A stretch of DNA of 61,572 nucleotides, the filler included, from Candidatus Nezhaarchaeota archaeon WYZ-LMO8 (GTDB lineage: Archaea; Thermoproteota; Methanomethylicia; Nezhaarchaeales; WYZ-LMO8), in NCBI GenBank assembly GCA_004347965.1. It is 16 parts of 16 records of this genome, joined end to end, with 100 filler letters (N's around TTAATTAATTAA, not from the genome) between each part and the next. Parts side by side here need not be neighbours in the genome. Positions count along the whole stretch, not along the records: positions 21,694 to 25,465 come from QNVF01000066.1; 15 more parts are not named here. One strand, 5' to 3'. The notes beneath the pieces were generated by a model. It was not told the DNA's origin and made no database searches. It saw nothing but the letters and a program-made list of their open reading frames with translations. The translations under genes and the position numbers were made by a program. Below are positions 21,594-25,635 of this stretch, one piece after another (position 1 is the first letter of the stretch; every line of letters begins with the position of its first letter).

Positions 21594-21694
21594 NNNNNNN
21601 NNNNNNNNNNNNNNNNNNNNNNNNNNNNNNNNNNNNNTTAATTAATTAANNNNNNNNNNNNNNNNNNNNNNNNNNNNNNNNNNNNNNNNNNNNA

Positions 21695-22738
21695 ACTAAG
21701 CACGATTATGGCATCATCGAAAGGTGCGTTGACGAGTACGAGAGAAGCATTAAGTCGAAGTTCTCATCTAGGCGCCACGTATTCTTCACCTTCTTTAGCG
21801 ACAAACCCCTACTGGATGTCGACTTCGCTGTGTATAGCATTACGACACATGTAGCCAGTTCCTACGAGGTCTTAGGAAGGCTTTGCAGGCTGATAAGTAA
21901 GGAGTATGGTTACTTGGCCGAGAGACTGGGAAGAGACAAGGTAGTTTTCCCGGTGTCTGGGGTTGAAGAACTACCTGAAAAAATGAGGTTCAACGTCGCT
22001 GGATTGGACTTGGAGCTTACCCTTCACGGCATCAAGCCTTTAAACTTCTCTAGCGCTTATGAAGCGAATTGCATTAAGAGACTTTTACATAGAGCGATAA
22101 AGATAAAGTTGAAATCCAAAGGGTTCATAGTGAAGGGGCTTCAGGCATATTGGAGCAACCCCGTAGTTGAAAGCGATAAAATCGAGGTTAGGAGGGGGTT
22201 CGAGTTCAACGTCATTGTATTTAGTGATGGGGTCGTGGCGCTGGCTCTATCTCCTAAGAGCGAAGTTTCATCAAAGTTGACCCTTTGGGAGGAGAGTGGT
22301 AAGAGCTACGAAAGTCTGCTGAAGATGTCTCGAGAGCTACATGGTAGAGCAGCCAAGAGACTCTACGATGGCGCCATCATAAGGATATTGAGAGTTGAGC
22401 CGATTAGAGTGCATGAAATTGTTAGCGGAGCCAGCGTTCTAAGCATCTATGGGACTAGGGGCATCTTAAGTGGACAGATTTCAGTTGAAGAGCCAGTAGT
22501 CGTGGGGGACCTAAAGGGAGAGGAAGTCAGAGAAGCTCCTTCTATGCTAAAACTCATCTACACCTTGAAGGACCTCAAGAGAATGAAAGTTACCAGTGAA
22601 GTTGTAAAGTTCTTGCATTCGCCACCCCAATTGTGGCTAAAATCAGCTAAGGACTTCCTCAAATCTATAGGCCACATAGAGCTAGGAAGAGAGACCATAG
22701 GCTTCATTGATGAGCCGCCAGAGGTGGAGCTTCTATGA
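21695..22738 (+). CDS. Putative Argonaute N-lobe (N-L1-PAZ-like-L2) partner protein, 5' truncated
   Basis: Frame is open to the contig start, 45 codons beyond the called GTG; IEVRRGFEFNV..FSDGVVALALSP resembles the Ago L1 region; ATGA overlap with the MID-PIWI gene. Confidence 0.65.
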   Translation, partial: TKHDYGIIERCVDEYERSIKSKFSSRRHVFFTFFSDKPLLDVDFAVYSITTHVASSYEVLGRLCRLISKEYGYLAERLGRDKVVFPVSGVEELPEKMRFNVAGLDLELTLHGIKPLNFSSAYEANCIKRLLHRAIKIKLKSKGFIVKGLQAYWSNPVVESDKIEVRRGFEFNVIVFSDGVVALALSPKSEVSSKLTLWEESGKSYESLLKMSRELHGRAAKRLYDGAIIRILRVEPIRVHEIVSGASVLSIYGTRGILSGQISVEEPVVVGDLKGEEVREAPSMLKLIYTLKDLKRMKVTSEVVKFLHSPPQLWLKSAKDFLKSIGHIELGRETIGFIDEPPEVELL

Positions 22739-23931
22739 GAAAGGGAGGGTACCTTAAAAGGCCCGTGCTTAAATTTAGGGATGGTACGGCCTTAACCCCG
22801 ATTGAGGGCTTTAAGCTGAATTTTAAGCCCTATAGAGGGGCTAAGTCAATATCTTGCTACGTAATATGTAAGGGTAACGTACTACATGCCGCCAAAGAAA
22901 TGATCAACAACTTGATCTATGGAGTCAAAGGTTATGAGGGGTTAGAAGCATGGTTCGATTGTAGCCTGAACGTCCACTCAATAGTCAAGGTCGATGCCAA
23001 TGATGAGTACGTAAAGGTAGCTAATGAAGTTTCTGAAGACCATGACATCGTAGTAGCCTTCATTCCCGACGAGATGGCGGTAGAATACGAGGAAGACCCT
23101 TACATGCCCTTAAAGAGGATCTTAGCGGCTAAGGGGTTGCCCAGTCAAATGATTGAGGAGTCGACGTGTAGGCATTTAAGAGATAACAGTTACGTACTAT
23201 TTAACGTTGCTTTGAGCCTATACTCCAAGACTGGTGGCATTCCTTGGACATTGTCAGAGCCTTTGTACTTCGACTGCGTAATAGGCCTCGATTCTATGAA
23301 CAAGGGGGTTGCTGCTACAGTGGCATATGCCACGCCCTTATCATTCAACTGGTTTATTGAGAGTGGAGGGCGTGAGGCGTTGACTGAGGCAGTGATCTCG
23401 TGCTTGAAGGAGGCTAAAACGTATAAGCCGATTAGGAGGATCGCCTTTCATAAGGATGGACCGTTGCACGAGTCGGAAGTGGAGGCTTTAAAGGCTGCAC
23501 TTAATAGGGCCGAAGAAATAGGGTTAGTACATGACCCCCTATGGTGTGCGTTTGAGGTGAAATCTCGATTCACACCTAGAATATTGGGAACTTCGGCTCT
23601 GAGGTTCTACAATCCCGAAAAGGGGGTTTACGTACAATTAGATAAGTTTAAGGCGATCGTAGCAACGACAGGCTTTCCTGAGAGACCTTTAAGTCCAGCT
23701 CAAAGTCCTGTAAGACCTATAATGGTCGAAGCCGTTGACGGTTCGTGGTGGGATTTTGACTTTGAGAGGGCTTTGACGGATGTTTATTGGCTCTCAGAGC
23801 TACATTGGGCTTCGGGATTCACGTCTACGAGACTTCCAATAACCACCCTCTATGCTAAGAGGATATGCAGTTTTTGGAGAGCTGGAGTTGAGCCTTCGAA
23901 GCAGCTGTATGGTAAGCTGTGGTTCTTATGA
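22735..23931 (+). CDS. ago: Prokaryotic Argonaute, MID-PIWI only (short/split pAgo)
   Basis: Y123xxxK127, PSQ138, K165TGGIPW (MID pocket); IGLD186, FHKD241G, LSELHWAS, RLPITTLYAK375 (PIWI); C-terminal LWFL. Confidence 0.93.
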   Translation: MRKGGYLKRPVLKFRDGTALTPIEGFKLNFKPYRGAKSISCYVICKGNVLHAAKEMINNLIYGVKGYEGLEAWFDCSLNVHSIVKVDANDEYVKVANEVSEDHDIVVAFIPDEMAVEYEEDPYMPLKRILAAKGLPSQMIEESTCRHLRDNSYVLFNVALSLYSKTGGIPWTLSEPLYFDCVIGLDSMNKGVAATVAYATPLSFNWFIESGGREALTEAVISCLKEAKTYKPIRRIAFHKDGPLHESEVEALKAALNRAEEIGLVHDPLWCAFEVKSRFTPRILGTSALRFYNPEKGVYVQLDKFKAIVATTGFPERPLSPAQSPVRPIMVEAVDGSWWDFDFERALTDVYWLSELHWASGFTSTRLPITTLYAKRICSFWRAGVEPSKQLYGKLWFL

Positions 23932-25465
23932 AGTGGGTCTATGTCACATGCCTTGGCGAGACACCAGAGGCCGTGTATGGTCCACTTTGGGCACTCGTTG
24001 AGAGGGGTATAAAGCCGTCGAAGATCCATGTACTTTACACTGAAGGGGTCAAGTGGCTTTTGGACAAGGTCAAGAAGCAGATGGCTATAGTCGCCGAGAC
24101 GAGCGACGACGTCGTTGAAGCAACTGAAGTGGATGAGACCGACATCGAAGATAATGCTAGGACTGTGAGGGAAATTGTGGAGAGGTACAAGGCTGAAGGG
24201 TTTAAGGTATCGGTTGATGTGACCCCAGGTAGAAAGCCAATGTCAATAGCAACGTTTCAAGGAGCTATAGACGGTCAAGCGGACCTGGTAACGTACCTCC
24301 ACTTGATGATGAAGGATTTTGAGAGAAAGCCCTATCCACTGATACCAAGAAGCGTAGCGAAGCTTGTCTTGCTCAAGGGAGTGGGATCGTGGGTTTCTCC
24401 AAAGCCACCATTAGTAGAAAATCATGAGTACGTGGAGATAGACCAGATGGAGATATACCCATTCATAAACCTACTTTGTGAGGTCATCGATCGAAACACC
24501 ATAGCTATCGAGATCCCCTACTTAGATCTAAAGCTTTTAACACTAAGGCTCGAGCATCCGAATCCTAAGGTAGAGTACGTAGTTGACGAGAAGACCTTCA
24601 ACGAGAACTTGAAGAACAAGGGTCTCTTGAGCGCCGAGGCCTTCCTACCATTTGGTAATGAGAGGAAGCACATATTCCTGTTATTCAGGGATGCCCTCAT
24701 AGCTTCTGGGGTCGTGGACATTGGGCATAGAGCCTTGATCGATGAAATCAAGAGAGAGGTAGAAGAAGGTGCATTAAGAAGGGGATTTGCGGCTGTGGCC
24801 GTAGACACGAATGCTTTATACATGAGGGTCGTAACTAATTACGTGCTAAGCTTCGTGGAGGCTAGTAGGCTTAAAGTGTTGGTCTCGAACATCGTTGTAA
24901 GGGAAGCTTTAGCTCCCCACACTTTAAAAGAGATGGTTAAGGAGAAGGAGTGGGTCGAAGAGAGCGATAAGATCAAGTCTTTAGCGTTAAAGGTCGGGAC
25001 TGAAGCCCTGCAATTACCAGTTAAAGCGGAGCCTCTAAGGTCAAGGTTATCAAGATTAGCCGCTATTGAGTTAAAAGAGCTCCAAGAAAGGACCAACGTA
25101 ATGATCGTTAGCTCTGTAAGCGGTAGAGGAGACCTAGCTTTAATTGAAAGTTATAAGCAAAGCCCCGATAACCCCATATTCATAACCGGTGACGTGTCTG
25201 CTGCTAATGTAGCCGAAACTGTGAAGTTGAGGACTTACTTAATATCCTATGACGTAAGTGTAAGCAGAGAGGCTCTTAAAATCACTTACACAAACTTTCC
25301 AAGACTCATATTCAACTTAGCAACACTCTTAACGATGATCTCAATAAGGGTACCGAAGACGCGAATAGAGGTCCACGTATTAGGAGCGTGGAGGGATATG
25401 ATAACCTCATGGAGTAAACCAACGATCTTAGTTAGGGCGCCAAATCCAATACACGAAAAGGCGAG
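23928..25465 (+). CDS. CARF-PIN fusion protein (3' truncated)
   Basis: N-terminal CARF (VTCLGETPEAV; VDVTPGRKPMS); C-terminal PIN (VAVDTNAL, VVRE, GDLALI, FITGD); ATGA overlap with ago. Confidence 0.8.
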
Positions 25466-25635
25466 NNNNNNNNNNNNNNNNNNNNNNNNNNNNNNNNNNN
25501 NNNNNNNNNTTAATTAATTAANNNNNNNNNNNNNNNNNNNNNNNNNNNNNNNNNNNNNNNNNNNNATAGAAAGACAAAAAAGGAAATTTGGCGAAAACTA
25601 ATTTTGTTCCAATTTAATAGCTTGGAGGCTAAAAG

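Follow-up and report, generated by a model that had tools for sequence, protein, structure and literature searches.

Why some Argonautes live in CRISPR loci has been a question since MpAgo was described, and it bears on whether innate (Argonaute) and adaptive (CRISPR) nucleic-acid-guided immunity communicate. The locus described here, from a Nezhaarchaeota genome, raises it again. Three linked genes appear to encode the two halves of a split prokaryotic Argonaute (pAgo) and a protein with a CARF sensor and a PIN RNase. The original prediction was of a new, self-contained pAgo defence system in which the Argonaute fires the RNase. We asked whether the Argonaute or a CRISPR-derived signal is the more probable trigger, and what the Argonaute may be doing in such a locus.

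A three-gene operon on one whole contig

The window, meaning the whole stretch of 61,572 nucleotides that was analysed, contains 15 linkers of the form N...TTAATTAATTAA...N and is therefore a string of concatenated contigs, so that the sequences on either side of 21694-25465 within the window are not its true neighbours. This interval is one whole contig of 3,772 bp with three reading frames on the + strand. The frames and the ATGA overlaps that had been proposed to link them, at 22735-22738 and 23928-23931, were confirmed. The features of the contig are as follows.

21595..21693, no strand: assembly linker (N run, TTAATTAATTAA, N run); contig boundary, with another contig to the left
21695..22738, + strand: Ago-N gene, 5'-truncated and open at the contig start, 347 of 418 codons; predicted N-L1-PAZ-L2 lobe of a split Argonaute
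22735..22738, + strand: ATGA in which Ago-N ends and MID-PIWI begins; overlap also in L041 and L042
22735..23931, + strand: MID-PIWI Argonaute gene, 398 aa, from Pfam Piwi, PADLOC pAgo, a PDB profile search and residue tallies
23928..23931, + strand: ATGA in which MID-PIWI ends and CARF-PIN begins
23928..25465, + strand: CARF_m1-PIN gene, 3'-truncated and open at the contig end, 512 of 525 codons, from PADLOC and Foldseek
23928..24305, + strand: CARF domain, residues 1-126, with the DVTPGRK motif, from a ring nuclease profile match and invariant residues
24783..25241, + strand: PIN nuclease core, residues ~286-438, with D293/E345/D402/D422 invariant in 7/7 homologues
25466..25565, no strand: assembly linker; contig boundary

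Both contig ends are truncated, as had been noted at the outset. Measured against the longer homologues, the window copy of Ago-N lacks 71 N-terminal residues of the full-length 418-aa protein encoded on metagenome contig L041, and CARF-PIN lacks 13 C-terminal residues of the full-length 525-aa protein P0004. The gene order Ago-N, MID-PIWI, CARF-PIN recurs with both ATGA overlaps in a second lineage (L042), in which the Ago is 71% and the CARF-PIN 52% identical to that of the window. That the ATGA coupling of MID-PIWI and CARF-PIN has been kept in two lineages so far apart in CARF-PIN sequence (only 52% identity) argues that the arrangement is more than chance adjacency. Contigs from RNA libraries span parts of all three genes; DNA carry-over is possible, and a single transcript is not provable from contigs. 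Our literature searches found no paper describing an operon of a split Argonaute with CARF-PIN.

The first two genes encode successive parts of an Argonaute

Ago-N matched positions 5-285 of a 666-position pAgo profile (PADLOC PDLC02428, E 7e-19), and MID-PIWI covered positions 293-665 of the same profile. The split-Argonaute reading was supported. The window Ago-N is 100% identical to residues 72-418 of the L041 protein. Its structural model (pLDDT 85) returned TtAgo in Foldseek (4e-15), and model residues 97-418 aligned with CbAgo over 297 positions (VIA Z 20.0, rmsd 5.0), with Z scores of 18.9 for TtAgo and 19.6 for PliAgo. In the model, then, the upstream protein has the N-lobe fold of a long Argonaute, in agreement with its earlier description as N-lobe-like, and because ~297 residues align to the full CbAgo N-lobe, a PAZ domain is probably present. 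An Atlas search with the N-terminal extension of Ago-N (residues 1-98) gave scores of at most 0.87 to Argonaute N/L1/PAZ clusters and serves as a lead only.

The assignment of the second gene to a 398-aa MID-PIWI Argonaute was borne out by its length, by Pfam Piwi (PF02171, 43.2 bits against a cut-off of 28.9) and by PADLOC pAgo (PDLC02436, E 2e-62). Its best sequence matches were the long-A CbAgo (9e-38, PDB profile search) and CpAgo. All clade members that we found were 257-415 aa long, of the split form and in cas contexts, and the next matches were pAgos of ~750 aa. In residue tallies, the putative 5'-phosphate pocket of the MID domain (Y123/K127/Q138/K165), whose residues we take to be equivalent to those of the AfAgo pocket, was invariant in 36/36 clade members.

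In the PIWI domain, D186, D241 and K375 line up with catalytic residues of CpAgo, and E214 is a candidate glutamate finger, placed by eye. Of the 36 clade members, 29 have D at the position of D186; at that of D241, 24 have D and 12 have E; at the fourth catalytic position, 22 have H, 5 have D and 3 have K. The K-bearing sequences, two of which are the same protein, are exactly those followed by CARF-PIN, and K instead of H occurs only in the CARF-PIN-linked sublineage. DEDX tetrads with X being D, H or K are counted as catalytic in the portion of Ryazansky 2018 available to us (PMC6299218). Judged by its D-E-D-K tetrad, the split Argonaute probably still cleaves its target.

The third gene encodes a putative cA4-responsive RNase

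The third gene had been read as an N-terminal CARF domain followed by a C-terminal PIN domain, and the protein indeed matched PADLOC 'CARF_m1--CARF_PIN' (E 5e-42), with the quoted motifs in place (DVTPGRK at 97-103, VDTN at 292-295 and TGD at 420-422). Besides the four acidic PIN residues, D97, T99, P100, G101, R102 and K103 of the CARF domain were invariant among homologues. In profile searches residues 6-123 matched the ring nucleases Sis0455 (2.6e-7) and Sso2081 (5.4e-7), Foldseek matched the CARF domains of Cam1, Card1 and Sso2081, and the Pfam CARF models all scored under their cut-offs. A search of viral contigs with CARF-PIN gave no match.

The nearest solved relative of the CARF-PIN model (pLDDT 77) over its whole length was SiRe_0806 of S. 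islandicus (Foldseek E 4e-11, TM 0.57-0.61; profile match E 6.6e-6). This protein was crystallised with cA4 (PDB 9jxw/9jxx, the former titled 'PIN domain-containing protein'); we found no paper on SiRe_0806 and used the PDB titles instead, and a literature search for 'PprPIWI' likewise found no paper. The likeness to the cA4-bound fold suggests that CARF-PIN may bind, and be activated by, cA4.

The Argonaute clade is embedded in CRISPR-cas loci

Over 2,789 nt the window contig and L041 share 100% identity, and L041 continues further upstream. The merged gene order, with arrowheads giving direction, is cas4< cas6< herA> nurA> CARF_m5> cas2< AgoN> MID-PIWI> CARF-PIN>, and the operon therefore sits within a CRISPR-cas locus. 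Across the clade, the Ago is regularly accompanied by cas1, cas2, a cas1-like gene and CRISPR arrays, and 12 of 16 metagenome loci have an adaptation gene next to it. In five loci cas1 directly follows Ago-N, with an ATGA overlap in L045, and arrays begin ~20-500 bp from MID-PIWI in L045, L047, L049, L010 and L008. On several branches of a quick tree, the split Ago genes border the adaptation module beside arrays; as the backbone of this tree is poorly resolved, we claim no order of events. The loci also carry other CARF genes (Csx1, CARF7, CARF_m5 and TIGR02710), herA-nurA and ATPases.

Given these constant companions, the Ago clade belongs to the CRISPR locus and so most likely serves CRISPR, whether by helping to capture spacers or as a second, parallel arm of DNA interference; any role in adaptation is inferred from the neighbouring genes. 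A search of genome contigs with the single protein P0003 returned one locus only. When the cas, cmr and cas10 proteins of L041 and L050 were compared with the whole window by tblastn, Ago-N was the sole match and the other contigs of the window added nothing.

For the window's own lineage 9.8 kb of sequence are known, and no cas10 was seen in them. Two relatives do carry it. The L050 locus holds cas1, cas2 and cas6, with cmr4, cmr1, cmr6 and cas10 at 5-10 kb from the Ago, and genome G174 encodes Cas10 with Csx7/Csx10 RAMPs 23 kb from the Ago. Searches for Cas10 with TIGR02577 and the L050 Cas10 fragment matched in G174 only and gave no match in G346, G298, G001 or G158; as these are incomplete MAGs and the queries were weak, this is no evidence that cas10 is absent from them.

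CARF-PIN is associated with the Argonaute but is not its constant partner

Among 10 loci with at least 500 bp of downstream sequence, CARF-PIN directly follows MID-PIWI in two, both from the window's own sublineage. In three related genomes it is split into two genes (CARF_m1 and a PIN part), which lie 12.6 kb from the Ago in G174, 11.8 kb from it in G346 and on a contig other than that of the Ago in G298. In a 400-genome sample of the phylum, a CARF-PIN match was nevertheless present in 3/4 genomes of the Ago clade and in 14/396 others (Fisher p 2.5e-4, uncorrected for shared ancestry); for the PIN part at a strict cut-off the figures were 2/4 and 2/396 (p 4.5e-4, likewise uncorrected for shared ancestry). 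The same Ago/CARF-PIN pairing came from consecutive accession numbers in several MAGs. A decayed CARF-PIN copy in G158 had no synteny and no Ago remnant around it. Co-occurrence of CARF-PIN with this Ago clade thus exists, but with adjacency in 2/10 loci it is not that of a constant partner. Across the clade there is no strict linkage between effector and Ago, which sets these loci apart from the short and split pAgo abortive-infection systems of the SPARTA, SPARSA, SPARDA and SiAgo type.

A CRISPR alarm molecule is the more probable trigger of the RNase

We favour, with moderate confidence, the reading that the split Argonaute is embedded in a CRISPR locus and is co-transcribed with an ancillary RNase that Cas10/cA4 activates. 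The three genes would make up a single operon within a type III CRISPR-Cas locus, the host being a hot-spring archaeon. Ago-N (N-L1-PAZ-L2) and MID-PIWI would be the two halves of one long-type Argonaute, and we infer that they form a heterodimer, which would hold 5'-phosphorylated guides. The third gene product would be a CRISPR ancillary effector whose CARF domain senses cyclic tetra-adenylate, made by Cas10 once the type III complex meets invader RNA; this signal would turn on the fused PIN RNase and lead to growth arrest or abortive infection. The Argonaute would not be the trigger. Only in the window's sublineage would CARF-PIN have been fused into one gene and set right behind ago. The position of the operon within a CRISPR locus makes it more likely that the RNase is triggered by a CRISPR alarm molecule than by the Argonaute. 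Against this reading stand the ATGA coupling of MID-PIWI and CARF-PIN in two lineages, their pairing in several MAGs, the genome-level co-occurrence and the failure to see cas10 in the 9.8 kb of the window's lineage. The K in fourth place of the tetrad, too, would suit a slicer that had lost strength and recruited a nuclease.

Rather unlikely, in our estimation, is a closer connection in which the Argonaute of this clade is wired functionally to type III CRISPR signalling. It would work alongside Cas1-Cas2 at the arrays (spacer capture or priming), and in the window's sublineage the cA4-gated PIN would be a true Ago partner, either released when the Ago binds its target or making the 5'-phosphate guides for the Ago to load. 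If true, cyclic-oligoadenylate signalling would for the first time be tied directly to an Argonaute.

We consider it unlikely that the Ago heterodimer makes up a self-contained defence system together with CARF-PIN, in which guide-directed target binding by the Ago activates the PIN domain, by contact or through a Cas10-independent signal. The ATGA overlaps in two lineages, the genome co-occurrence (3/4 versus 14/396) and the replacement of H by K in the CARF-PIN-linked sublineage alone all speak for it, and a split or short pAgo followed by an effector gene has precedent in the part of Manakova 2024 available to us (PMC10954474). However, CARF-PIN is missing from 8/10 loci with downstream DNA and is split and ~12 kb away in G174 and G346, known CARF ligands come from Cas10, which is present in related loci, and the nearest solved CARF-PIN relative binds cA4. 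In addition, the PIWI tetrad counts as catalytic by the DEDX rule and is largely kept in the clade, so that no substitute nuclease is required. A complex prediction for MID-PIWI and CARF-PIN gave 'no answer' (score 0.02, mark 0.32) and informs neither way. The proposal that the Argonaute fires the PIN domain was not supported, given an operon within a CRISPR-cas locus, constant partners that are cas1, cas2 and arrays, and Cas10 in the loci of two relatives.

More doubtful again is mere co-location, in which the Argonaute would act on its own as an innate nuclease for DNA interference, CARF-PIN would be a CRISPR accessory in its own right, and the two would have come to share a defence island and a transcript through an accident of insertion. 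Defence genes do cluster, and herA-nurA, ATPases and several CARF genes are present in these loci as well, but the five loci with cas1 directly after Ago-N, the ATGA overlap in L045, the flanking of the adaptation module near arrays on several tree branches and the split form in a cas context of every clade member found argue against it.

Least probable of all is that the RNase serves the Argonaute, with a cA4-activated PIN cutting RNA to 5'-phosphate fragments that the split Ago loads against invader DNA or RNA: PIN nucleases leave 5'-phosphates, the Y-K-Q-K pocket is invariant in 36/36 and the genes are coupled as one operon, but most clade members have no adjacent CARF-PIN and long-A relatives such as CbAgo use DNA guides. 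Its precedent, in the portion of the source available to us, is AmAgo, which takes 5'-OH guides from a co-encoded HEPN RNase, so that end chemistry matches pocket (PMC11162769).

Comparison with known systems

On the favoured reading of a CRISPR-embedded split Argonaute, this clade would be a second case of an Argonaute in CRISPR loci, which looks independent of the first at the sequence level. It is distinct in being archaeal, in its two-gene Ago, in its 5'-phosphate pocket and in the frequent translational coupling of the N-half gene to cas1, and in the window's lineage the Ago is also coupled to a cA4-type sensor RNase. As three small proteins from thermophiles, the components are well suited to biochemistry.

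The first case is that of the MpAgo-like 'MID-OH' long-A pAgos, which Kaya and colleagues are said to have described in 2016 as encoded in type III-B CRISPR loci. MpAgo, looked for under what we take to be its PDB entry codes, was absent among 51 PDB matches to E 10, in which CbAgo stood at 9e-38. In both groups an Argonaute stands among cas1, cas2, cas6 and cmr genes; for the MpAgo-like group the operon has been published as Cas1-Cas2-Cas6-pAgo-Cmr (Ryazansky 2018, PMC6299218, as far as available to us). Unlike that group, the present clade is archaeal, its Ago is split in two genes, and it has the canonical Y-K-Q-K 5'-phosphate pocket in place of a MID-OH domain for 5'-hydroxyl guides; the accessible portion of the same source describes no CARF-PIN partner.

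With the split long-B fAfAgo of Archaeoglobus fulgidus and with SiAgo/Aga1/Aga2, as covered in the available part of Manakova 2024 (PMC10954474), the clade shares adjacent N-lobe and MID-PIWI genes and, as here, a further gene immediately downstream. AfAgo-N lacks PAZ and AfAgo is catalytically dead (PMC10954474, same part), whereas in the clade PAZ is probable and the tetrad reads D-E-D-K/H; of the long-B fAfAgo features we thus found the adjacent two-gene split, and neither the inactive PIWI nor the PAZ-less N-lobe. The downstream effectors that this part lists are helical-domain fusions with TM, HEPN, PD-(D/E)xK, TIR or SIR2, not CARF-PIN (PMC10954474), and the word 'CRISPR' does not occur in the main text of that paper.

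Like the third gene product, SiRe_0806 and the PADLOC families CARF_m1--CARF_PIN and CARF_PIN have CARF at the N-terminus, PIN with its four acidic residues at the C-terminus and a further domain between the two. SiRe_0806-type proteins are ~410-430 aa long, against 525 aa for CARF-PIN, with an identity of only ~16-17%, and unlike them CARF-PIN is here translationally coupled to an Argonaute gene. Finally, AmAgo with Agap-HEPN (PMC11162769, in the portion available) also pairs a catalytically competent pAgo, here a predicted one, with a co-encoded RNase. Agap-HEPN is sensor-less and makes 5'-OH guides, whereas the window's operon combines a putative CARF-gated PIN with an Argonaute whose pocket is of the 5'-phosphate type.

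The operon encodes a split Argonaute and a CARF-PIN protein

The window (1-61572) comprises 16 contigs of ~3.4-4.8 kb each, sorted from large to small and joined by 15 N...TTAATTAATTAA...N linkers (0.01 expected by chance); adjacency across the linkers is therefore meaningless, and the operon's neighbours in the window are not its real ones. Exactly one contig (21694-25465, 3,772 bp) holds the operon. As originally predicted, three co-oriented genes overlap there with ATGA at both junctions, and the contig is truncated at both ends, gene 1 being open at its 5' end and gene 3 at the contig end.

Genes of the operon
Open at contig start to 22738, + strand: gene 1 (Ago-N), reading frame
22735-23931, + strand: gene 2 (MID-PIWI), 398 codons
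23928 to beyond the contig end, + strand: gene 3 (CARF-PIN), reading frame

The Argonaute N-lobe-like nature proposed for gene 1 was upheld. Gene 1 matches the positions 1-285 region of a 666-position pAgo profile (E 7e-19), of which gene 2 covers positions 293-665. Full-length Ago-N (418 aa, from an identical contig) was modelled with pLDDT 85 from an 8-row alignment, and residues 97-418 of the model superpose on the N-lobes of CbAgo (Z 20.0 over 297 residues), PliAgo (Z 19.6) and TtAgo (Z 18.9; Foldseek E 4e-15). A PAZ domain is probably present, as the length of the alignment in this model implies. The first ~96 residues (L041:5821-6110, on a metagenome contig identical to ours), missing in the truncated window copy, form an extra conserved domain of beta-beta-alpha-alpha-beta-beta-alpha arrangement with invariant D19, G28, Y76 and G77, which has no counterpart among the aligned Argonaute structures.

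Gene 2 matches a short-pAgo profile (E 2e-62) and scores above the Pfam Piwi cut-off, confirming a 398-aa MID-PIWI Argonaute. Its profile is nearest to CbAgo (9e-38) and CpAgo (5e-32), both long pAgos with catalytic activity, and AfAgo ranks behind them (1.6e-20). All 36 full-length members of the clade have the same 5'-phosphate pocket residues (Y123/K127/Q138/K165), and 29 of them keep the first catalytic D of PIWI; the third catalytic position is D in 24 and E in 12, and the fourth is H in 22, D in five and K in three. The putative window tetrad, D186, (E214), D241 and K375, is predicted from its residues to fall under the DEDX rule, X being D, H or K, quoted in Ryazansky 2018 (PMC6299218). 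K at the fourth position (K375, window 23857-23859) occurs only in the three sequences that precede CARF-PIN, namely the window, its identical twin and the metagenome locus L042.

The assignment of gene 3 as a CARF and PIN protein likewise held: it matches PADLOC 'CARF_m1--CARF_PIN' (E 5e-42), the DVTPGRK CARF motif is kept, and the PIN acidic residues D293, E345, D402 and D422 are invariant. The full-length protein has 525 aa (P0004), and a model (pLDDT 77) resembles SiRe_0806 of S. islandicus over its whole length (Foldseek E 4e-11, TM 0.57-0.61; by profile, E 6.6e-6). SiRe_0806 was deposited as a 'PIN domain-containing protein', alone and with cyclic tetra-adenylate (cA4), and our literature search found no paper on it. 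Sis0455 and Sso2081, two cA4 ring nucleases, match the CARF domain of gene 3. A further CARF-PIN copy in the genome G158 (L039:10685-11820; G158:C2:40685-41817) is 80% identical to the window's, lacks residues 1-147 and contains an internal TAA; with no Ago-clade match in G158 and no cas genes within 10 kb of the copy, it looks like a decaying orphan.

Five contigs of one metatranscriptomic library from another study, 95-99% alike, fall on all three genes, and one of them bridges the MID-PIWI/CARF-PIN junction (23602-24093). They hint at transcription of all three genes, although such contigs cannot prove one transcript and DNA carry-over is possible. The stretch is also present in DNA runs from 8 hot-spring metagenome studies.

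The operon is part of a CRISPR-cas locus

The identical metagenome contig (L041; 100% over 2,789 nt) adds 6 kb upstream, giving the merged order cas4< cas6< herA> nurA> CARF_m5> cas2< AgoN> MID-PIWI> CARF-PIN>, and the operon is therefore part of a CRISPR-cas locus. The extension sought for a cyclase or cas10 yielded cas4, cas6, cas2 and CARF_m5, and cas10 itself was seen in relatives: the locus L050 runs on into cas6, herA, cmr4, cmr1, cmr6 and cas10, and in the genome G174 a Cas10/Csx7/Csx10 module and an array of 45 repeats lie at distances of 11-23 kb from the Ago.

Searched with a profile, 1.84 billion representatives yielded ~20 full-length MID-PIWI family members (382-415 aa, E 1e-92 or better), after which scores drop to 1.7e-41, where ~750-aa single-chain pAgos start. 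A word-based search gave 29 clusters, all of 257-415 aa, with source names Nezhaarchaeales, Thermoprotei, Baldrarchaeia and Odinarchaeota. The family is sharply bounded and its members are short compared with single-chain pAgos, so the split form is the rule across this clade.

We sampled contexts in 16 metagenome loci and in four genomes from a 400-genome sample of the phylum, annotated with PADLOC, NCBIfam, Pfam and BLASTP to annotated ORFs. Of the 16 loci, 12 contain at least one gene for adaptation, be it cas1, a paralogue resembling cas1, or cas2; the four without one are contigs of at most 4.2 kb. In five loci cas1 lies directly 3' of Ago-N, with an ATGA overlap in L045, and the typical order is [array] AgoN> cas1> cas2< cas1-like< MID-PIWI> [array].

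Ago-N/cas1 blocks
L045:9108-12024
L048:3022-7552
L049
L050:803-5274
L051

Between cas1 and MID-PIWI, sister lineages carry cas2 plus a further gene of 259-289 aa that is cas1-like but scores weakly, and CRISPR arrays begin 18 to ~500 bp past MID-PIWI in L047, L049, L045, L010 and L008. The Ago-N/cas1 adjacency and the flanking arrays suggest a physical or functional Ago-Cas1 link. A herA (DUF87) gene and a nurA-like gene also recur beside the Ago/adaptation block (L041:2081-4742; L008:4368-7072; L050:7512-9188).

CARF-PIN adjoins the Argonaute in one sublineage

The same gene order was recovered in L042 and, as an Ago/CARF-PIN pairing, in several MAGs (with consecutive accession numbers and equal-sized contigs), but it did not extend to most relatives. 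In the MAGs, contigs of 276,445, 35,201, 29,123 and 16,093 bp bear the pair in identical or nearly identical form. Of the 10 metagenome loci that continue for 500 bp or more past MID-PIWI, two have CARF-PIN directly after it, L041 (the window's own sequence) and L042, and the other eight lack it there. L041 and L042 belong to the window's sublineage (window, L042, L001; SH-aLRT 99 in a quick tree, the rest of its backbone unresolved). L042 keeps both ATGA overlaps, and its CARF-PIN is only 52% identical. The Ago proteins P0003/P0011/P0199 and the CARF-PIN proteins P0004/P0200-P0203 are identical or >90% identical under the MAG labels Thermosphaera sp., Thermofilum sp. and Nezhaarchaeales, reflecting either inconsistent binning or recent locus transfer among hot-spring archaea.

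Three related genomes instead carry two adjacent genes, CARF_m1 (~150-170 aa) and a PIN part (~310-357 aa), so the window's single gene is a fusion or the pairs are fissions.

Split CARF_m1 and PIN genes
G174:C1:574724-576201, CARF then PIN, 12.6 kb from Ago
G298:C14:44448-45835, CARF then PIN, on a different contig from Ago, beside cas4, a ring-nuclease-like CARF7 gene and cas2
G346:C17:17696-18983, permuted (PIN then CARF), 11.8 kb from Ago

A second CARF_m1-like gene lies just downstream of the G298 pair, and a TnpB-family fragment of 176 aa, confined to the C-terminal part (L020:19064-19594), lies ~1 kb from that of G346.

In the 400-genome sample, with shared ancestry ignored, CARF-PIN matches occur in 3/4 Ago-clade genomes versus 14/396 others (p 2.5e-4), and PIN-part matches with E no higher than 1e-5 in 2/4 versus 2/396 (p 4.5e-4). 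A common type of locus accounts for these figures no less than a direct tie does.

We lean towards a reading in which CARF-PIN would be an ancillary RNase of type III systems, controlled by cA4 that Cas10 makes, the split Ago would be CRISPR-embedded with adaptation genes as its conserved partners, and the two would have been joined into a single transcript in one sublineage only. A self-contained pAgo defence system in which the Ago heterodimer fires the PIN RNase, as first proposed, draws on the translational coupling that L042 also keeps, on co-occurrence at the level of genomes and on the K confined to CARF-PIN-linked sequences; it was not sustained, given the CRISPR-cas setting and the adjacency in only two of 10 loci, and we consider it unlikely. 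Mere co-location of Ago and CARF-PIN appears slightly less probable again. PIN nucleases leave 5'-phosphates. Least probable, by a small margin, is a reversed dependence in which PIN would supply guides to the 5'-phosphate pocket of Ago, paralleling AmAgo and its HEPN RNase (PMC11162769).

Comparison with known systems

Argonautes embedded in CRISPR loci are documented in bacteria for the MpAgo-like MID-OH group, whose scheme PMC6299218 gives as 'Cas1-Cas2-Cas6-pAgo-Cmr', and that group is also listed as CRISPR-linked in a preprint (10.1101/270033). Unlike MpAgo, the Ago described here is split and has a different pocket type, and no close sequence kinship to MpAgo was detectable. Split pAgos are represented by the inactive long-B AfAgo group (PMC10954474), in whose main text CRISPR is unmentioned; in contrast to fAfAgo, the tetrad is largely kept here and PAZ is probable. 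CARF-PIN belongs to an existing ancillary protein class (PADLOC families; PDB 9jxw/9jxx). Our literature search, which included the accessible parts of PMC13477220, PMC11217426 and PMC6279821, did not find the combination of a CRISPR-embedded Ago, a split pAgo and CARF-PIN in print. The locus joins these three known kinds in an apparently unpublished way, and is of real interest for Argonaute and CRISPR specialists.
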